Source of the DNA: Candidatus Dojkabacteria bacterium
GTDB lineage: Bacteria; Patescibacteriota; Dojkabacteria; J137
NCBI GenBank assembly: GCA_030834985.1
Contig: JAUQWV010000006.1
Location: 140,168 to 204,167, forward strand
Direction of reading: 5' to 3'
DNA: 64,000 bases
The position numbers and the translations under genes were made by a program. This document shows positions 1,743 to 48,907 of this stretch, piece after piece (position 1 is the stretch's first letter; each line of letters opens with the position of its first letter). The notes under the pieces were generated by a model. That model had not been told where the DNA came from, made no database searches, and saw nothing but the letters and a program-made list of their open reading frames with translations.

Positions 1743-3056
1743 TCACATGCTTTCGTGCAAGGTTGCCAAGAATTCTTCGTTAGTTTTTGTCTTCTTTAAT
1801 CGTTCTAAAAGTACTTCTGTTGGGTTTGCATTAGTTTCGGACTGAATAGTATCTAACATTCTAATTACTCTCCATGTTTGTGCTAAAACTTCTGGAGAAA
1901 GCAACTTATCTTCATTTCTTGTATAAGACGAAGTTACATCTATTGCAGGGAAAATTCTTCTTTCGGTCAATCTTCTATCCAATTTAACTTCCATATTCCC
2001 TGTACCTTTAAATTCTTCAAAGATAACATCATCCATTTTACTTCCTGTATCTACTAATGCAGTTGCAATTATAGTTAATGAGCCGCCATTTTCCATATTT
2101 CTAGCAGCACCAAAGAACTTTTTTGGAGGAAAAATGGCCACTGGATCAAATCCTCCTGATAGTGTTCTGCCTGATGGTGGCGCAACAATGTTGTAAGCCC
2201 TGGCAAGCCTTGTAATACTATCCATCAAAATTACAACGTCTTTGCCATATTCAACTAGTCTTTTAGCTCTTTCTACTGCCATTTCTGCTATCTTTGTGTG
2301 AAATTCTGGAGGTTCATCAAAGTTTGCGGCAATAACCTCGCCTTTAACAAATCTTTGCATATCAGTTACCTCTTCAGGCCTTTCACCAACTAAAACAACC
2401 ATTAAGTGTATTTCGGGATGATTTTTGGCTATACCATCTGCAATGTCCTTCATTAACCAGGTTTTACCTGCTTTAGGAGGAGCTACAATCATACCTCTTT
2501 GACCTTTACCGATAGGACTAATCAAATCAATCAATCTTGTAGATAAGATGTGCTGTTCTGTAGCAAGTTTAATTTGTGAGTCTGGATAAACTGGGGTTAA
2601 TTTCTGGAATGTAGGTCTTGAGATGGCTTTTTCTGGACTTGTACCGTTTATAGCTTCAATTTTAAGAAGGCTAAGGTATCTTTCACCCTCTTTTGGAGGT
2701 CTGGCTTGTCCGGAGATAAAATCTCCTTGTCTTAAGTTAAATCTCTTAATTTGAGAACCTGACACATAAACATCGTTATCTGCAGGCAACATCGTTGCTG
2801 ATCTTAAAACACCATGTGTATCTTTTACTACTTCTAAAAAGCCTTCTGCAAAGATGTTTCCACCTCTTTTAGTTTGCTCAGCTAAAATTATTAATACGAG
2901 TTCATTCTTTTTCAATTCTTGATTATCTTTTATTTCTAACTCTGTAGCTATCTTTCGAAGCTCAGCTAATGTCATATCTTCCAAATCTTTAATGCTTGTT
3001 GATTTTGCTATAGAATCTTTTTTTTGTACCGTTTCTTTTTTTACCACTGTAGTCAT
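1743..3056 (-). CDS. rho: Transcription termination factor Rho
   Basis: 437 aa. Rho N-terminal domain LAELRKIATELEI. RNA-binding region. Walker A GQRGMIVAPPKAGKT. Rho-type RecA-like C-terminal domain (AANFDEPP... VDTGS...). Confidence 0.9.
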   Translation of the reverse strand: MTTVVKKETVQKKDSIAKSTSIKDLEDMTLAELRKIATELEIKDNQELKKNELVLIILAEQTKRGGNIFAEGFLEVVKDTHGVLRSATMLPADNDVYVSGSQIKRFNLRQGDFISGQARPPKEGERYLSLLKIEAINGTSPEKAISRPTFQKLTPVYPDSQIKLATEQHILSTRLIDLISPIGKGQRGMIVAPPKAGKTWLMKDIADGIAKNHPEIHLMVVLVGERPEEVTDMQRFVKGEVIAANFDEPPEFHTKIAEMAVERAKRLVEYGKDVVILMDSITRLARAYNIVAPPSGRTLSGGFDPVAIFPPKKFFGAARNMENGGSLTIIATALVDTGSKMDDVIFEEFKGTGNMEVKLDRRLTERRIFPAIDVTSSYTRNEDKLLSPEVLAQTWRVIRMLDTIQSETNANPTEVLLERLKKTKTNEEFLATLHESM

Positions 3057-3488: not shown

Positions 3489-6026
3489 TTACTTGATTTT
3501 ATTATCCGTTGGGGCAAATACCACTACACCCTCTTTATTTAAGGATGCCGAAACTTGTATTAAATTCTTTCGTTTTTTAGGCAGTTTTAACTTAAGTAAA
3601 TACTCGGCTAAACCATTTTCTAAAAGCTCTTGAACTTTTCGTCTAATATTTCTAGCTCCATACTCCTTACTATAACCATCTTCATTTATTTTGTTTACCA
3701 CTTCGTCCGAAACAGTTAATACTATTCCGGTAGGTAAAATACGCTTAATAAGTTCATCAGTTTCTATTCTAGCTATCTTTAGGCAATCATTTTTATTTAA
3801 TCCTCTAAAAATATCTATAAGATCGATTCTATTTAATAATTCTGGTGCCAAAGTATCTCTAAGATCTTCCATAACCCTGTCTTTCATCTCCTCGTATGCT
3901 TCCTCTACCTCATCATCTTTAATAGTCTTTATCTCAACATCAAATCCTAGTTTATTATCTTCAGAGATCTCATCTGCTCCAATATTTGAAGTCATAATTA
4001 CTATGCAGTTCTTAAAGCTTACCTTTCCACCTTTTCCATCAGTTAATTCACCTTCTTCAAGGATTTGAAGCAAGATATTGAGAACATCTAAATGTGCCTT
4101 TTCGACCTCATCAAATAGGATTACTGAGTAAGGTCGGCGTTTCACGAATGTAGTAAGTTGACCACCTTCTTGATAGCCTACATAACCTGGAGGTGAACCT
4201 ATTAATTTAGATATGCTGTGCATCTCCATAAATTCACTCATATTTATCTGATAGAGCAAGCTTTCAGAACCAAAAAGCTCTTTTGCCAAAGATTTTGCCA
4301 ATTGGGTCTTTCCTACACCGGTTGGTCCTAAGAACAAAAAAGAAGCTAATGGCCTATTTCCACCGTTTAAACCTAAATGAGATCTTTGTACAGCTAAAGA
4401 AACGTTATCAATTACTCTATCCTCTCCAACTATCCTTTTTTTTAAGTTCTCAGATAAATCTTTAAGCTTTTTATCCGAAATATCTGCTGCGGCAATCGGA
4501 ATTTTAGTCCATTCAACAATGATATCTTTTATAAGGTCTTCAGATACTGTTTTAGAGTATTTAATTCCAGTTTTCTTCTTGCCGTCAATTACATCCTGAA
4601 TCTCTTTCATGATATCCTCTTCCATATCTTTGTACTTTGCAGCATTCTTGAAGTCCTGATTTTTAAGAGCTTCGTTCTTTTTACTTTGACACTCAACGAG
4701 CTTCTCGCCAAGCTCATTAATTTGGGGCTCTAAGGCCTTTTCTCGACCTACTTTTATACTTGCAGCTGCCTCATCTAGTATATCGATAGCTTTATCTGGC
4801 AAATATCGGTCTCTAATAAACTTATTCGATAAATCTACTGCAATATTTACAGCATCTTGAGGGATTTTTACACGGTGATATTTCTCTAGCTCTGGAGCAA
4901 TCTTAGAAATCACCTGCTTTGCGCTTTCAACACTTAATTCTTCTACTGAAATGGGTTGAAAGCGCCTTGTTAGCGCCGAGTCAGTCTCGAAGTACTTTAC
5001 GTACTCATCCTGCGTTGTAGCGCCAATTATGCTTAAACTTGAATTTGTTAAATACGGTTTTAGCATATTAGCAATATCCATAGTATCTTTGCCGCCTGCA
5101 CTTCCAGCTCCAACAATATTATGAATCTCATCAATGAACAAAATTGTATTATCATCATTCATTGCCTCATTAATTACTGCACCAATTCTTTCCTCAACAT
5201 CTCCCCTTAGCTTAGCTCCTGCTAAAATTGCGCCAACATCTAGACTTAAAACCTTTGCATTCAAAAAAGATGCTGGAACTTTTTTTTGAATAACAGCATT
5301 AACAAAGCCTTCTACAATTGCTGTTTTACCTACACCTGCATCACCTACTAGTATAGGGTTATTTTTTGTTTTTCTAGCTAGAATATGGATTAAACGCTGA
5401 ATTTCAGCATCTCTACCACTTATATTCGGATAACCACCTTCTAATGCAATTTCATTCATATTTCTAGTAAAGTATGGCAGCGCAGATCTTGGTCCTATAT
5501 CTTGAAATTCTGGATTCTGCATCTGCATATCACCACTCTTTAATACTGCGTTTAAAGCGTTATAGTTACTTACATTGAGTAAAGTTTTTCTTATCTGCTC
5601 CGAATTTAGTCCTAATGTTTTTAACTCATCAATAAAAGCTACATCTTTTAGTTCAAACATACCCAACAAAATATGCTCTGTTCCTACATATAGATGATTT
5701 AAGTTATATGCAGCTATAAAACTTTGATTTATTAATTCCTTCATCTGCTCGCTAAATACAGTCTTAACTTCACCTCCTATAAATTTTGCTTCATTTTCCT
5801 CAAATTCCTTTAGAATACGTGCTGAGCTCGACTCTATATCTACACCTAATTTATTCAATATTTCAAAGACTATTCCTCCCTTGTCTAACAGCAATGTATA
5901 AAAAAGATGAATAGCTAGAAATTCCGAGTATTTATACTTTTTTGCATTCAAATATGCTTGCTCAATAACTCTTCTAGCGTTGGTGGTTAATCTGTTGATA
6001 CCTTTAGTTTCAATAGTGCTCTCCAT
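3489..6026 (-). CDS. clpC: ATP-dependent Clp protease ATP-binding subunit ClpC-like (Clp_N repeats, two AAA+ modules, short M-domain)
   Basis: 845 aa. Clp_N repeat ([17 protein letters not shown]). D1 Walker [15 protein letters not shown]2 Walker [16 protein letters not shown]. Short coiled-coil M-domain between D1 and D2, which is ClpC-like rather than ClpB-like. Confidence 0.85.
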
Positions 6027-7848: not shown

Positions 7849-7886
7849 AAAAAAGAGCTCTTTATTGCTAAAAAGCTCTTTTTAAA
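7849..7886 (-). terminator. Tandem small hairpins with T-runs immediately 3' of the 5S rRNA
   Basis: The sequences aaagagctcttt (self-complementary) and aaagctcttttt directly abut the 5S 3' end. On the minus strand each is followed by a U-run. Confidence 0.45.
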
Positions 7887-8003
7887 ACCGGCAATTACCT
7901 ATTCTCCCAACAGGGTATCCCGTTAGTACCTTCGGCTCAACTTTGTTTCACTTCTGAGTTCGGGATGGGATCAGGTGGTTCCAAAGCGATACCATCACCG
8001 GAC
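7887..8003 (-). rRNA. rrf: 5S ribosomal RNA
   Basis: The reverse complement contains the canonical ...CCACCUGAUCCCAUCCCGAACUCAGAAGUGAAAC... 5S core. About 117 nt. Ends are approximate (+/-3 nt). Confidence 0.9.
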
Positions 8004-8174
8004 CTAAATTTAGAATTCTAAACTTAAGTCTAATGACGATCAATTGAACTTGTTAATGTTTTCTTTGTTCAAGAAAAACTGAATAGAAAGACGAGTTTCC
8101 AGTGCTCAGTCTCAAGCAACCAGTAAAGATTACTCTTAACTGATAACTGAAAGCTGAAATTTTAAGTCTGAAAA

Positions 8175-11213
<3,039 letters not shown>

Positions 11214-11321
11214 TTCTCGACTTAAAATCTATTTCTTTCTATTCAGTTTTTAATGAACAAAGTTTTAACCAACTTTGTTGGCTAATTTAAACCCTTTGGC
11301 TTAAATCAGACAACAAATAAA

Positions 11322-11396
11322 TGGAGCCTAAGGGATTCGAACCCTTGACCTCCTCATTGCAAATGAGGCGCAATAAACCAGCTATGCTAAGGCCCC
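11322..11396 (-). tRNA. tRNA-Ala (anticodon UGC) in the 16S-23S spacer
   Basis: Reverse complement GGGGCCTTAGCATAGCTGGTTTATTGCGCCTCATTTGCAATGAGGAGGTCAAGGGTTCGAATCCCTTAGGCTCCA. It has the G3:U70 alanine identity pair, anticodon loop TTTGCAA and T-loop TTCGAAT. Confidence 0.85.
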
Positions 11397-11420
11397 GATC
11401 TCAATATTCAAAACTAATAA

Positions 11421-11497
11421 TGGTAGGCCAACATGGACTCGAACCATGGACCTTTCCCTTATCAGAGGAATGCTCTAACCAGCTGAGCTATTGGCCT
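11421..11497 (-). tRNA. tRNA-Ile (anticodon GAU) in the 16S-23S spacer, CCA encoded
   Basis: Reverse complement AGGCCAATAGCTCAGCTGGTTAGAGCATTCCTCTGATAAGGGAAAGGTCCATGGTTCGAGTCCATGTTGGCCTACCA. Anticodon loop CTGATAA. Confidence 0.85.
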
Positions 11498-11642
11498 ATG
11501 TTTAGTCTAAGCACCAGCTTACTTGCTGGCTAAAATTTTAATTAACTTTGAATACTAAAAAGTGACAAGATCCTCTACGGAGATCTTTGAGTATCAAGAT
11601 CATGGGTTTGCAAAATCTATAACAGATTTTGACTAACTCCTT

Positions 11643-13152
11643 AGAAAGGAGGTAATCCAGCCGCAGATTCCCCTACGGCTACCTTGTTACGACTTAAGCC
11701 CAGTCGCCACCCATAACTTTCGGCCACGATAAACGTAGACTTCGAGTATGAGCAACTCCCATGCCCTGACGGGCGGTGTGTACAAGACCCGAGAACGTAT
11801 TCACCGGAACACGCTGATTTCCGATTACTAGCAATTCCAACTTCATACAGGCGAGTTGCAGCCTGCAATCTGAACTGAGACGATCTTTGATGGGATTAGC
11901 TCCGCCTTGCGGCTTGGCAACCCATTGTTATCGCCATTGTAGTGTCTGTGTAGCCCTGGACATAAGGGACATGATGACTGGACGTCATCCCCTCCTTCCT
12001 CCCCGTTTTGGCGGGGCAGTATCAGAAGTAATTGTAACATCTGAAAGGGGTTGCGCTCGTTGTGGGACTTAACCCGACATCTCACGACACGAGCTTACGA
12101 CAGCCATGCATCACCTCTGTGGCACCTTCGAAAGAGTCCTACTTTCATAGGATTAGCAGCCACAGTTCAAGCCCAGGTGAGGTTCTTCGTTGATCATCGA
12201 ATTAAACCAGGCACTCCACTGCTTGTGCGGGTCCCCGTCAATTCCTTTGTGTTTTAACCTTGCGGTCGTACTTCACAGGCGCCCTGTTTAACGCGTTAGC
12301 TGCGACACTCAAAAAGTGCTTATCCTTCTCCGAAGAGAAATTTCAGCAAATTTCGAACATCTAACAGGGATCGTTTACGGTGTGGACTACACGGGTATCT
12401 AATCCGTTTTGCTCCCCACACTTTCGAGCCTTAGCGTCAGTACATGTCCAAATAGGTGCTTTCGCCATTGGTGTTCCTCCTGATATCAACGCATTTAACC
12501 GCTCCACCAGGAATTCCCCTATTCTCTACATGACTCAATCCAGAGAGTTTTCTATGCGGTTCCAAGGGTGAGCCTTGGGATTTAACACAGAACTTTTCTA
12601 GACGCCTACGCATCTCTTTACGCCCAGTGAATCCGGGTAACGCTTGTGTCCCACGTATTACCGATGCTTCTGGCACGTGGTTGGCAGGCACTTATTCATC
12701 TACTACACTCAGAACTTGTTCGTAGATAAAAGGAGTTTACGATCCTAAGACCTTCATCCTCCACGCGACGTCGCAGCGTCAGCCTTTCGGCCATTGCGCA
12801 TAATTCCTAGTTGCTGCCTCCCGTAGGAGTCTGGGCCGTATCGCAGTCCCAGTCTGGCTGGCCATCCTCTCAGACCAGCTACCCGTCATAGGCTTGGTAG
12901 GCCATTACCCCACCAACAACCTGATAGGACGCGGGCTCATCCTTGAGCGAAAAATCTTTACTCTTGCGAGACTATCTGAGATTACCCCGCCTTTCGGCGA
13001 GCTATATCAGACTCAAGGGGAGATTCCCACGCGTTACTCAGCCGTTTGCCACTATGAACTTTCGGTATTACTACCAAAAGTTCACCGTTCGACTTGCATA
13101 CCTTAGGCACGTCGCTAGCGTTAACCCTGAGCCAGGATCAAACTCTCCATAA
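11643..13152 (-). rRNA. rrs: 16S ribosomal RNA
   Basis: 3' end: the reverse complement of aaaggaggtaatccagccgca is ...GCGGCUGGAUUACCUCCUUU, the anti-SD tail. 5' end: the reverse complement of ctgagccaggatcaaactct is AGAGUUUGAUCCUGGCUCAG. Internal universal stretches are present (GTGCCAGCAGCCGCGGTAATAC as reverse complement near 12640..12670; ...GTACACACCGCCCGTCA near 11765..11790). About 1510 nt. Confidence 0.95.
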
Positions 13153-13451
13153 AAATTGCTTCCACTTGACTTATGGAAGACCAACTAAATCAGTTACCTG
13201 AAGTGCTGGATTTTTGAGTCCCTCTATTATGAATAATAAAGGGGTTAAAATTGAGTTTAGATCTTGACTACAAAGAAATATATAAAGAAACCTTGTCACT
13301 TTTAAATATTCAAAGTGCTGCCCCTAAAATACAAAGAGCAAAGAAATCAATCTTTGTCTAAGATTTTAAAATATTGTTTTACCAATGAGGCAATCTGGTC
13401 TTCTTATTCGCTTGGATTAAGATTAGATCCAGAACTGAAAATTTGTATTGA

Positions 13452-25363: not shown

Positions 25364-25819
25364 TTATATATTATATTTTTTTCTATCTCTTTCGATTCCT
25401 CTTTTTATATCTTTTTCCTTAATAACATTTCTTTTATCAAATTTTTTTCGTCCTTTTACTAATGCAACATTTAATTTTACTAAACCTCTATCATCCTGTA
25501 TTACTTCTAAAGGAACAATTGTAATACCAGGCTGTTTTACTGAAGCTGCTAGCACAGTAATTTGTCTTTTAGTTAATAATAGCTTTCTTCTGCGCTTCTC
25601 ATCTACTTTAGATGAGCTACTTGCAAACTTCCACATTGGAATATTTGCACCCTCTAAAAACATTTCATTGTTTACATTTTTGATATATGCCCCAGCAAGG
25701 CTGATTTTACCAGCTTTAACAGACTTTACTTCCCATCCGAGCAAATTGATTCCAGCTGTAACGGTATCTAAAACGTCGAAGTCAAAATATGCCTTTTTAT
25801 TACTTGCTAGAACTTTCAT
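25364..25819 (-). CDS. smpB: SsrA-binding protein SmpB
   Basis: 151 aa. MKVLASNKKAYFDFDVLDTVTAGINLLGWEVKSVKAGKISLAGAYIK matches the SmpB N-terminal consensus (K-x-A-x-N-K-K-A-x-x-D-Y ... G-x-E-V-K-S). Basic C-terminal tail. Confidence 0.9.
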   Translation of the reverse strand: MKVLASNKKAYFDFDVLDTVTAGINLLGWEVKSVKAGKISLAGAYIKNVNNEMFLEGANIPMWKFASSSSKVDEKRRRKLLLTKRQITVLAASVKQPGITIVPLEVIQDDRGLVKLNVALVKGRKKFDKRNVIKEKDIKRGIERDRKKYNI

Positions 25820-46632: not shown

Positions 46633-47499
46633 TTAATTTGCGTTTACTTCTACTGCTGGTTCCTGAGCTTTCGAAATCCTTCGTCTTTCAAGCCAGACAA
46701 TAAAAAGCTGTTGAATTATAACAAAGCCACTCTGGATAATCCAGTACAAGCTAAGACCAGCGCGGAACTGGTAAGATAAGAAGGTATACAAAATCGGAAA
46801 TAACACCATTGTCTGCTGAGTAGATTTTTGCATAATCTCTGAAAAGTCTTCTGTAGCAGGATTATCCTTACCTAATTTTTTATTTTTGTTCTTCTTTTTA
46901 GGCTCTTCTAATTTTGGATTATTCTGCTTATTTGCATTCATTGAAATCTTCATTGAGTAATATTGCGTTACGCCTACTAATACCATCAGAATTATGTACG
47001 GAAGGAACGATAAAAAGTCCCCACTCGCAAAGTCAGCGGGATGCTTGCTAAGGTCAAATCCTAAGAATGAATAATTAAGCTGATAACCTTCATTAAAAGC
47101 TGGAATAAATGAATAAGCCATTTCGTTAAAAGCGGTTGCGCCTCTTTCAACTAAATTGATTATTACCTGATAGATATTAATGAAGAAGATTAATTGTAAA
47201 ATTATCGGCAAGCATCCCGCCAATTGACTTGGTAAATACTCTGATTGTAAGGCCATTAATTCTTTGTCTTGCTGTTCTTTATTATTCTTATGCTTTTCTT
47301 TAATAGTCTTCATCTTGTCAGAAAACTCTCTGCTTCGTACCATTGTCTGTCTTTGCCTAATCATAATTGGCAATGTTATTAGCCTAGAAAAGATACCGAT
47401 AGCAATTATTGCTAACCCTAGGTTTTCACCGAATAATCTATAAAAAACTATAATGAGGTTAAAAATTGGCTGATAAAGAAGTGTTATTGTTATGTCCAT
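46633..47499 (-). CDS. yidC: Membrane protein insertase YidC/Oxa1 (short form)
   Basis: 288 aa. Five TM segments. LGLAIIAIGIFSRLITLPIMIRQ in TM1-2. Conserved C-terminal TM helices. Basic tail (KKKNKNKKLGK). Confidence 0.85.
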   Translation of the reverse strand: MDITITLLYQPIFNLIIVFYRLFGENLGLAIIAIGIFSRLITLPIMIRQRQTMVRSREFSDKMKTIKEKHKNNKEQQDKELMALQSEYLPSQLAGCLPIILQLIFFINIYQVIINLVERGATAFNEMAYSFIPAFNEGYQLNYSFLGFDLSKHPADFASGDFLSFLPYIILMVLVGVTQYYSMKISMNANKQNNPKLEEPKKKNKNKKLGKDNPATEDFSEIMQKSTQQTMVLFPILYTFLSYQFRAGLSLYWIIQSGFVIIQQLFIVWLERRRISKAQEPAVEVNAN

Positions 47500-47569
47500 A
47501 AATTACTATTTGTTGCGTCTTTATATATTGCTCACTAATGATAGCAAACTTTTACTTTATACATAATTA

Positions 47570-47612
47570 AAAAGGGCACCTTCAACAGAAGTTGAAGATG
47601 CCCTTTTGGTGG
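47570..47612 (-). terminator. Intrinsic terminator immediately after the tmRNA 3' CCA
   Basis: The sequence aaaagggcaccttcaac-agaa-gttgaagatgccctttt is a 13-bp stem with one mismatch and U-runs on both sides. Confidence 0.7.
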
Positions 47613-48067
47613 AGATGAGGGGTTTTCCCCTGTCCAAAAAAACTCAAATTAAAAAATTGTTACAAGCTTATTAAGTTTATATAGATAAAGATAACTAACT
47701 AAAAACTCACAAAACATTAATTATCTTAGCTTACGTTAAGCTTAGAATGTGCTCGTAAACTAAAAACACATTTTGCATTCCGGCTAAGTGGCGCCTAAGA
47801 GTTTTCACCGGAAGAAAATCTCAAAGACGGCTAACCTACTTGTTTTTTCGGTTAGCTACTGATGCTAAATTAAGCAAAAGCTAGAGCGTAAGAAGGAGCA
47901 AAAGCTGCCTTTACACCTGCAACTGCATTAGCAACAGTATTTTTAATTTGATTGACGCTTATGTCAAAGAACCTTTATTCAAGGTGACTATTTATTTATA
48001 AGGAACAAATAATCTAAATTCCTGCTTGTTTTTTAAGATGCAATTCTTCTGTCTAAAAAGCATCCCC
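47607..48067 (-). ncRNA. ssrA: Transfer-messenger RNA (tmRNA, ssrA) candidate, ~460 nt
   Basis: The minus strand starts GGGGAUG... and ends ...GGACAGGGGAAAACCCCUCAUCUCCACCA. The 7-bp acceptor stem GGGGAUG/CAUCUCC has the G3:U70 alanine identity pair, discriminator A and an encoded CCA. The 3' end resembles Bacillus tmRNA (...UCUCCACCA). The internal frame GCU AAU GCA ... GCU UAA (47932..47870) encodes ANAVAGVKAAFAPSYALAFA*, a typical AN...YALA-type degradation tag. The T-arm is AGGGG-AAAA-CCCCU, a 4-nt loop instead of the usual 7-nt T-loop. Confidence 0.65.
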
Positions 48068-48127
48068 TAACAAGATAATCGCATTACCTTATTAGCGAAT
48101 GCCTATAAACATTATACCACAAAACCG

Positions 48128-48907
48128 TTATTTTAACCCATCTGCAAATGAATAATTAAGTGACTTTGCAAAGGTTAAACCCCATACTTTTGGGCAGCCG
48201 GCAGCTTTTAAAACCTTTGCACATTCGTTTAAAGTTGCCCCAGTAGTATGAACGTCATCTACAATAATTATAACTTTATTCAATAAATCCTCTGATAAGC
48301 TCCCTTGTGAAATCTTAAAACTATTACGTAGATTTATATTCCTAAGTTCCTTTGAACTGCCTGCCTGTTTTTTATTATTTATAACTTTCTTTAAGATAGT
48401 TTCAAATTTTATTCCAGTAAGTAACGAAACTTCTATTGCTAAAAGTTCAGATTGATTAAACCCTCTTTCATTTCTTTTAAATGTATGTGATGGCACAAAT
48501 GTAATTACAAAGTCATTTTTATTATTCCATAAGCACTTGAACTCCAAATATTTAGCCAAGTGAAAACCTAAATCATACCCTAATACTCTGCTATGCCTAT
48601 ACTTAAATGTTTCTATCAATTTTTTTGATTGGTCACTATATTCACAAAAAAACAATAGCCGATCCAAATTTGTACTATCTTCACACTCAGTGTGTATAAA
48701 GGAAGTAAAACAGCTCTGCCCACATACATGGCAAATATTTTTAAAATTTACATTAAGCTTAGTCCGTATACATTTGTAACATAAATAACTACTAGATCTG
48801 TTACACAAAATACAATATTTTGGGAAAAACAATTCAAGCATAAAGCTAATCACCGAAAGGTCCAAAAGAGTATTTGTGTTATATTTAAGATAAAATGAAT
48901 ATATCAT
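48128..48907 (-). CDS. comFC: ComF-family protein (ComFC-type phosphoribosyltransferase with an N-terminal Cys4 zinc finger)
   Basis: 259 aa. N-terminal CILCNRSSSYLCYKC...CHVCGQ. C-terminal PRTase motif VIIIVDDVHTTGATLNECAKVL. Confidence 0.8.
   Translation of the reverse strand: MIYSFYLKYNTNTLLDLSVISFMLELFFPKYCILCNRSSSYLCYKCIRTKLNVNFKNICHVCGQSCFTSFIHTECEDSTNLDRLLFFCEYSDQSKKLIETFKYRHSRVLGYDLGFHLAKYLEFKCLWNNKNDFVITFVPSHTFKRNERGFNQSELLAIEVSLLTGIKFETILKKVINNKKQAGSSKELRNINLRNSFKISQGSLSEDLLNKVIIIVDDVHTTGATLNECAKVLKAAGCPKVWGLTFAKSLNYSFADGLK

Follow-up and report, generated by a model that had tools for sequence, protein, structure and literature searches.

The closest described counterpart of the element examined here is the standard one-piece transfer-messenger RNA (tmRNA), represented by E. 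coli SsrA, which combines an acceptor stem bearing G3·U70-A-CCA, a GAC/GGAC junction and a long helix 2 with a tag open reading frame (ORF) closed by a hydrophobic A-L-A-x-A-type end and UAA, a pseudoknot-rich body and an encoded SmpB partner. No part of tmRNA is more conserved than its 3' tRNA-like segment, whose D-loop/T-loop elbow has so far been regarded as essential to the function of tmRNA and is a feature on which programs that find tmRNAs depend. In ribosome complexes from E. coli, SmpB Trp122 enters a pocket of A15, U17 and A334, G19 packs on a hydrophobic SmpB patch, EF-Tu contacts the acceptor and T arms, and the T-arm touches uL16, H38 and H89 (PMC8363625). Here we analyze a 64,000-nt stretch of contig JAUQWV010000006.1 from a Candidatus Dojkabacteria bacterium (the window, to which all positions refer), whose ssrA gene, lying between comFC and yidC, is like E. 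coli SsrA in its acceptor stem, junction, helix 2, tag ORF and SmpB partner, probably also in its pseudoknot-rich body, and carries a tRNA-like domain in which the elbow has been reduced.

Three other kinds of RNA offer points of comparison. Nematode and mammalian mitochondrial tRNAs with truncated arms lack the D-loop/T-loop lock yet are aminoacylated and delivered, relying on co-evolved EF-Tu variants and mitoribosomes. By analogy, these would be the nearest functional parallel, with the difference that the RNA described here is a bacterial tmRNA in a host whose tRNAs are canonical, so that one EF-Tu and one type of ribosome have to serve both. An acceptor-TΨC minihelix of ~12 bp with G3·U70 and a small loop suffices for alanylation, and the Dojkabacteria tRNA-like domain resembles a natural tRNA(Ala) minihelix tethered to a tmRNA body; unlike artificial minihelices, it is natural and must also bind SmpB and pass through the ribosome. 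The reduced tmRNAs of organelles and endosymbionts, such as those of jakobid mitochondria, likewise reflect lineage-specific reductive evolution, but they lose the mRNA-like domain or pseudoknots, whereas in the present case only the elbow has gone and both the mRNA-like domain and the large body are intact or even enlarged. In the mitochondrial tmRNA of Reclinomonas americana, the T-loop UU is replaced by GG, which is a substitution and not a shortening (PMC1168896).

The ssrA gene of the window was delimited with the Rfam tmRNA model RF00023 and by comparison with related loci:

47607..48067, minus strand: mature tmRNA (ssrA), 461 nt (RF00023; full-length syntenic matches in 13 relatives, and L034 beside comFC)

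The RF00023 match is full length (model 1-374/374) and reaches 50.2 bits, the gathering score being 47 (E = 7.8e-17 for the window as a whole), and a search restricted to the region returned the identical alignment. It lies where the original prediction had placed ssrA, on the minus strand of the gap between yidC (46633-47499) and comFC, which encodes a ComF-type phosphoribosyltransferase (48128-48907), and it is the sole tmRNA match across the 64-kb window, so that the prospect of an ssrA elsewhere with no match here, named in that prediction as grounds for abandoning it, did not materialize. The same gap had been described as free of ORFs, and none of at least 40 aa was found in it. Helix 2 aligned to the model with high posterior probability; pseudoknot 1 (PK1) and the later helices are also placed, although in the window their posterior probability is low and many of their pairs are non-canonical, and PK1 aligns better in one of the relatives introduced below (L002). 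The searches proposed along with the prediction gave a divided result, in that the Rfam match was obtained and an ARAGORN call was not. In the window, ARAGORN called seven tRNAs and no tmRNA, and when run on the window and 29 loci it made no call for any of the 23 short-loop tmRNAs examined, whereas canonical-loop tmRNAs were called. As the gene is supported by Rfam and by the comparative evidence alike, these misses are treated as a limit of the tool.

The tRNA-like domain is made up of the following elements, given in 5' to 3' order of the RNA; the clade referred to comprises the window tmRNA and 14 relatives:

48061..48067, minus strand: 5' strand of the acceptor stem, GGGGAUG, with G3 of G3·U70 (read from the sequence; invariant in 15/15 clade members)
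48054..48060, minus strand: reduced D-loop of 7 nt, CUUUUUA, free of guanine (Rfam consensus of 10 nt: AucuGGaUUC)
48051..48053, minus strand: GAC, 5' half of the GAC/GGAC junction at the base of helix 2a (invariant in the clade)
47632..47635, minus strand: GGAC, 3' half of the junction, holding the equivalent of E. coli A334 (invariant columns G6 G7 A8 C9)
47618..47631, minus strand: T-arm, a 5-bp stem AGGGG/CCCCU with tetraloop AAAA at 47626-47623 (sequence, RF00023, covariation)
47607..47617, minus strand: 3' strand of the acceptor stem, CAUCUCC, with U70 (47617-47611), followed by discriminator A and encoded CCA (47610-47607) (invariant in the clade)

The predicted pairing of GGGGAUG with CAUCUCC-A-CCA, including G3·U70, can be read directly (48067-48061 with 47617-47607), and the alanine identity set is complete, with a 7-bp acceptor stem, G3·U70, discriminator A and 3' CCA. 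The T-arm AGGGG-AAAA-CCCCU with its 4-nt loop, which had been singled out as unusual, is seen both in the sequence and in the RF00023 alignment, where CAGGGG-[4 nt]-CCCCU here stands against CGcGGG-[7 nt]-CCCgC in the model: the stem is present, and the loop is AAAA instead of the 7-nt TΨC loop (UUCRAnU) of standard tmRNA. The structurally reduced tRNA-like domain that was proposed on this basis is thus found, together with a loss that had gone unseen, that of the D-loop GG (G13 G14 in E. coli), which is absent from the window and present in 0/15 clade members. The reduction exceeds the earlier account and, in the genomes sampled, is a trait of the whole candidate class. Helices 1 and 2a are separated by a linker of 9 nt in the window and of 8-10 nt in the clade, against a reported 10-13 nt (PMC1168896). 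All seven ordinary tRNAs of the window retain a canonical GTTCRANTC T-loop and the D-loop GG, and because they stay canonical the elbow reduction is tmRNA-specific. An alternative fold, in which the T-stem opens to regain a loop of 7-8 nt, was ruled out, as the 12-nt arms of three relatives (L050, L051 and L053) cannot adopt it and no U54/A58-like positions are conserved.

The 14 further tmRNAs come from independent assemblies (NCBI, ENA, JGI and Logan). Three of them (L001, L002 and L022) derive from a first yidC genome scan or from a short-arm DNA pattern and the distant L034 from the pattern, and the other ten were sampled through comFC-ssrA-yidC synteny only, blind to T-arm length. The YidC scan of species-representative genomes yielded L001 (71% identity) and L002 (65%), both with a tmRNA at the same syntenic position; for the synteny sample, contigs were fetched for YidC homologues at 60% down to 43% identity. 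At each of the ten synteny-sampled loci, the interval from comFC to yidC contains a full-length tmRNA match whose T-loop has 3-5 nt and whose D-loop has 6-8 nt and no GG. Near the distant YidC loci L003-L009 and L055 there was no tmRNA. The RF00023 scores of the relatives range from 31.4 to 93.7 bits, and their T-arms read as follows:

L001: AGGGG-AUAA-CCCCU
L002: AGGG(A)-UUA-(U)CCCU
L046: AGGGG-GAAA-CCCCU
L047: AUGGGC-UAAA-GCCCAU
L048: ACGG(G)-AAA-(U)CCGU
L049: ACGGA-UUGCU-UCCGU
L050: AGGG-GUUA-CCCU
L051: AGGG-GUUU-CCCU
L052: AGGGG-GGAA-CCCCU
L053: AGGG-GUCA-CCCU
L054: AGGGG-GAUA-CCCCU
L056: AGGGG-GAAA-CUCCU

Throughout the 15 clade members, the T-stem measures 4-6 bp and the T-loop 3-5 nt with no conserved loop sequence, although often GNRA, and the D-loop measures 6-8 nt without GG, typically UUUAUUC in the synteny-sampled ten; the acceptor stem, G3·U70, ACCA, GAC and GGAC are invariant in all 15. 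In an alignment of these 15 sequences (the ten synteny loci, the window, L001, L002, L022 and L034), 97.1% of the T-stem cells are paired, a value that falls to 75.7% or less when the partners are slid. Two of the five pairs are changed on both sides (pair 2 as GC/CG/UA, pair 5 as GC/AU/GU), and the covariation score of 0.303, compared to a shuffled mean of 0.132, was reached by 0/500 shuffles. The comparison with relatives that the original prediction had called for hence returned a short T-loop in 14/14 related tmRNAs, with differing loop sequences and compensatory changes in the stem.

What has been lost in this clade is the 7-nt T-loop, replaced by a 3-5 nt cap, and the GG-bearing part of the D-loop, which is deleted. 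What is left is an alanine minihelix, in which a 7-bp acceptor with G3·U70, A and CCA is stacked on a T-stem of 4-6 bp, and which is joined through GAC/GGAC to helix 2, the tag template and the predicted pseudoknots. The molecule is a standard-type tmRNA in most of its features and departs from the type in two that are commonly taken to define it, namely the TΨC loop of 7 nt and the GG of the D-loop. Compared to standard tmRNA, the T-loop is shortened from the 7-nt UUCRAnU to 4 nt in the window and 3-5 nt across the clade, and the D-loop has 6-8 nt without GG; the RNA is longer, at 432-475 nt in the clade against 363 nt in E. coli; the clade tag spans ~26-33 aa with a putative Val (GUC) resume codon; and, unlike standard tmRNA, the gene goes undetected by ARAGORN.

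The partner protein is encoded in the window as well, at the position given in the original prediction:

25364..25819, minus strand: smpB, 151 aa, with the C-terminal tail present (Pfam PF01668, 154.4 bits, profile 2-142/143)

The product is a full-length SmpB and matches solved SmpB structures in the PDB, with E-values as low as 1.2e-32. Numbered as in E. coli, the D-loop is G13 G14 A15 U16 U17 C18 G19 A20 C21, and the contacts with SmpB, among them A334 (PMC8363625), fall in AUUCGAC and GGAC. Most clade members keep AUUCGAC and GGAC exactly, and the segment that would hold G13 and G14 is deleted.

The sequence facts are solid. We infer with considerable confidence that this is a functional Dojkabacteria (Patescibacteria, within the Candidate Phyla Radiation, CPR) ssrA whose tRNA-like domain has been reduced lineage-wide, and that it would work in the following manner. 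Alanyl-tRNA synthetase and EF-Tu would require the acceptor and T helices only; the alanylation of G3·U70 minihelices is well established, and charging of the window tmRNA is plausible for that reason. SmpB would still bind the retained 3' part of the D-loop and the junction, that is, the nucleotides it contacts in E. coli, and SmpB alone would hold the L-shape and the elbow geometry, rendering the D-loop/T-loop lock dispensable. The alanine would then be transferred and translation would resume at GUC, adding a 28-residue tag ending in ALAFA.

Variation in SmpB itself was also observed in the region of residues 17-23 (DTVTAGI in the window), where the Glu of the EAG motif, which we take to be E. 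coli E31, gives way to T, V, I, M, S or L in proteins P0001-P0014 and P0016. The replacement is seen only in the window's subclade (at least ~63% identity), whereas sister lineages keep both Glu and AUUCGAC. The Glu and D-loop changes are contig-linked in three genomes (the window, L001 with P0003, and L002 with P0009), and L046 with P0015 keeps both ancestral states. Compensation between SmpB and D-loop would be a weak lead, because the co-change counts as one event in evolution and variation at this position is seen in distant bacteria too.

Several observations weigh against a functional, elbow-less tmRNA. Work in E. coli found D-loop/T-loop contacts to be necessary for the binding of SmpB and for function, from which the domain described here should be impaired; either that requirement is lineage-specific or a compensating contact is present here. 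In the window's own subclade, UUUAGAC replaces AUUCGAC, with two nucleotides of the SmpB-contact module changed. The margin of the RF00023 match is small (50.2 vs 47 bits), two of the 13 syntenic relatives score below the gathering threshold (L048 at 46.8 and L056 at 31.4 bits), and scanning for a second, canonical ssrA covered the 64-kb window and relatives' loci of ~7 kb. The contact that E. coli would lead one to expect could be provided if the elbow had been replaced, with the tetraloop or the U-rich D-loop touching SmpB, helix 2 or 23S rRNA H38 instead. The GNRA-type loops of some relatives (GAAA in L046 and L056, GGAA in L052, GAUA in L054) would fit such a contact, as would the subclade change of the SmpB EAG Glu that accompanies the D-loop change in three contig-linked genomes. 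We nevertheless hold this unlikely, since neither the sequence nor the length of the loop is conserved, which disfavors a specific docking contact: AAAA, AUAA, UAAA, GUUA, GUUU, GUCA, UUGCU and 3-nt loops all occur, on stems of 4-6 bp, and the SmpB substitution is a single phylogenetic event at a position that varies in distant lineages.

The gene could also be a decaying, non-functional relic in a lineage where trans-translation is being lost, or could coexist with a second, functional ssrA elsewhere, as the reduced genomes of the CPR, the low covariance scores (31-94 bits), the rejection of every copy by ARAGORN and the restriction of the scans to the window and ~7-kb loci would allow. This we regard as improbable, given that the identity elements are invariant across lineages down to 43% YidC identity, the T-stem has undergone compensatory substitutions, the frame of the tag stays open, its start conserved and its end hydrophobic, the −10 box is conserved and the terminator strong, and smpB is intact with its C-terminal tail; furthermore, the same neat stem-plus-cap architecture in every member is not what decay would be expected to leave. 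Still further from the evidence is a sequencing or assembly artefact, in which a 3-nt deletion in the homopolymer-rich GGGGTTTTCCCC turned a 7-nt loop into a 4-nt one. The loop is indeed flanked by runs of G and of C and the window is one assembly, but loops of 3-5 nt with varied, non-homopolymer sequences and varied stem lengths recur in 14 independent assemblies, the D-loop is shortened in the same genomes, beyond the reach of any local indel, and the tRNAs of the same window are canonical. The hidden indel that the original prediction had named as a way for its claim to fail is thereby, for practical purposes, refuted.

A functional tmRNA would further call for a tag reading frame, which is laid out in the window as follows:

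47870..47956, minus strand: tag frame, from the putative resume codon GUC at 47956 to the stop UAA at 47872-47870, encoding VNQIKNTVANAVAGVKAAFAPSYALAFA (28 aa) (frame comparison, RF00023)

The predicted C-terminal stretch of the tag is …AAFAPSYALAFA / …VKAAFAPSYALAFA, and the frame ends …YALAFA-UAA. Tag frames in the clade share a start, in which (I/L)(N/S) stands before the resume point and VN after it, and a hydrophobic end, such as …YALAFA, …NYALA or …LALAA. At the nucleotide level, AUAAGC precedes GUC AAU here and UAAAC precedes it in relatives, these nucleotides being more conserved than the upstream amino acids, and the RF00023 alignment also places the resume codon on GUC 47956; on both grounds, translation probably resumes there. 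An internal frame ending SYALAFA-UAA had been foreseen and is borne out, whereas its proposed Ala-Asn beginning is not, since the conserved start lies eight codons upstream. At the codons in question, L001 and L002 both have Ser-Asn and differ from each other by synonymous changes (UCU/UCA, AAU/AAC), and comparison places these codons as internal to the tag.

The elements flanking the mature RNA are the following:

48111..48121, minus strand: extended −10 element TGTGGTATAAT (read from the sequence as a putative promoter; conserved in close relatives)
48068..48110, minus strand: 5' leader of ~37-43 nt, holding the motif AGGCAUUCGCU (alignment and upstream comparison)
47569..47606, minus strand: intrinsic terminator, a 17-bp hairpin followed by UUUUU (folding; compensatory changes in relatives)

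An extended −10 box upstream of the gene had been anticipated at ~48090..48100; the box exists and lies at 48121..48111 instead. Its counterparts in L001, L002 and L022 read tGtGGTATAAT, tatGGTATAAT or tatGATATAAT. A simple sigma-70 promoter scan did not list the −10 element, for want of a −35 match. With the −10 element at this position, a leader of ~40 nt would therefore have to be removed at the mature 5' end, presumably by RNase P, by analogy with known tmRNA maturation (PMC3968760). The strong terminator expected directly 3' of CCA is present, folding at −27 kcal/mol (z = −8.57, matched by 0/200 shuffles); a simple terminator scanner did not list it.

Two features of the leader were noted in passing. 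The motif (A/G)(G/A)CAUUCGC stands a few bases downstream of the −10 element; it is shared by the window with L001, L002 and L022 and turns up again in L051 and L054, and its likeness to the canonical D-loop string GGAUUCGAC may be a coincidence. Many relatives (L046, L048, L050, L051, L054 and L056) have, in the 25-40 nt of leader preceding the tmRNA, a strong hairpin that ends directly at the mature 5' end, as in L051 (gagaaagacat…atgtctttctc, then GGGG) and L048 (gtacctgattt…aaatcaggtac ctg, then GGGG). A hairpin abutting the 5' end is unusual for an RNase P substrate and may bear on the processing of an elbow-less tmRNA.

The distribution of the short-loop form was assessed through protein names and a metagenome scan. 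NCBI proteins that cluster with the window's SmpB at 90% identity are named Candidatus Dojkabacteria or 'Patescibacteria group bacterium', and YidC homologues at 47-50% identity bear the name Candidatus Dojkabacteria. These names identify the source of the window as a Dojkabacteria-type (WS6) CPR bacterium. Going by the sequences sampled, the tetraloop T-arm is a trait of that whole group. The single metagenome scan used a pattern built on near-universal tmRNA motifs and accepted short T-arms only; further lineages that it returned were confirmed with RF00023 as full-length tmRNAs, at 90-113 bits. They include a large metagenome group with T-arm UCGGC-UCACA-GCCGA and D-loop UAUAGUCUC, a related pair with T-arm AGGGC-UCAAU/UCACU-GCCCU, beside one of which lies an SmpB from a cluster named Candidatus Daviesbacteria, a single contig with CCGGG-CUAAA-CCCGG, and another lineage with a 6-nt loop, GAGGA-CUCACC-UCCUC. 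The D-loop GG is lacking in all scan-derived short-loop lineages, while two controls with a canonical loop (L039 and L040) read ACACGGUUUC; loss of GG and shortening of the T-loop go together. On balance, it is probable that the whole class Dojkabacteria trans-translates with an elbow-less tmRNA, a bare alanine minihelix shaped by SmpB alone, and that Daviesbacteria-like Microgenomates and a possible code-25 lineage show a milder form.

Other matches of the scan were set aside, either because their 7-nt loop is canonical and sits on a stem that is irregular or 4 bp long, or because they are off-target (L010, L013-L016, L018, L020, L021, L023, L025, L028, L029, L031, L035-L037, L039 and L040), and some of these served as controls only. 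The tmRNA with the 6-nt T-loop GAGGA-CUCACC-UCCUC (L038/L019) has an AGAC junction, and GAU replaces GAC. In L038, the minus-strand smpB ORF adjoining the tmRNA has a TGA in frame at the place of a conserved Gly in the alignment, pointing to genetic code 25 (Gracilibacteria/Absconditabacteria).

No description of shortened T-loops in tmRNA was found in the searchable literature, tmRNA database papers included. The 2025 tmRNA database paper, whose main pipeline combines ARAGORN and BLASTN, discusses the TΨC loop only as an intron site, and the database, with 97,179 sequences in all, lists 5275 tmRNAs for 6765 Patescibacteria genomes; short-loop tmRNAs may already be catalogued there without comment. 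A lineage-wide variant in the most conserved part of tmRNA provides a natural test of what the elbow is for, and concerns SmpB loading, RNase P processing, T-loop modification and the contacts with uL16, H38 and H89. If the functional reading is true, natural tmRNAs would be able to bind SmpB, be delivered by EF-Tu, be processed at the 5' end and pass through the ribosome without an elbow, the variant would point to a minimal design of the tRNA-like domain, and some of the 'missing' tmRNAs of the CPR would be detection failures. Genome annotations and estimates of trans-translation loss in the CPR are probably biased, because ARAGORN missed 23/23 short-loop tmRNAs and the Rfam threshold 2/13 syntenic relatives. 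The tmRNA loci of L053, L056 and L048 are likely mis-annotated or unannotated in public records, in the latter two because their scores fall below the Rfam gathering score; in L053, a called 71-aa 'gene' (2444-2659) overlaps the tmRNA (2473-2904).

Gene order around ssrA was also recorded. The gene adjoins comFC in Dojkabacteria-type and Daviesbacteria-type contigs alike (L001, L002, L022, L046-L054, L056, L011, L012, L026, L030, L032-L034 and L041-L045). The conserved order in Dojkabacteria-type contigs is ruvX – comFC – ssrA – yidC – (khpB) – rplY – lon-like AAA, and in Daviesbacteria-type contigs smpB is adjacent as well.

Each of the two control contigs mentioned above carries two full-length tmRNA genes in opposite orientation with the tag ANNNLALAA, at 2089-2438 (plus strand) and 2633-2983 (minus strand) in L039 and at 2203-2555 (plus strand) and 3621-3964 (minus strand) in L040. 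The genes of each pair lie within ~1.5 kb on high-GC contigs from one soil sample, and the T-arms inspected have a 4-bp stem and a normal 7-nt loop; the pairs may reflect duplication or an assembly artefact. The window further contains a complete rRNA operon (7886-13153, minus strand) with 16S, tRNA-Ile, tRNA-Ala, 23S and 5S, in which the 23S gene is 3051 nt long and has insertions relative to the model, for instance 75 nt versus 14 near model position 278.

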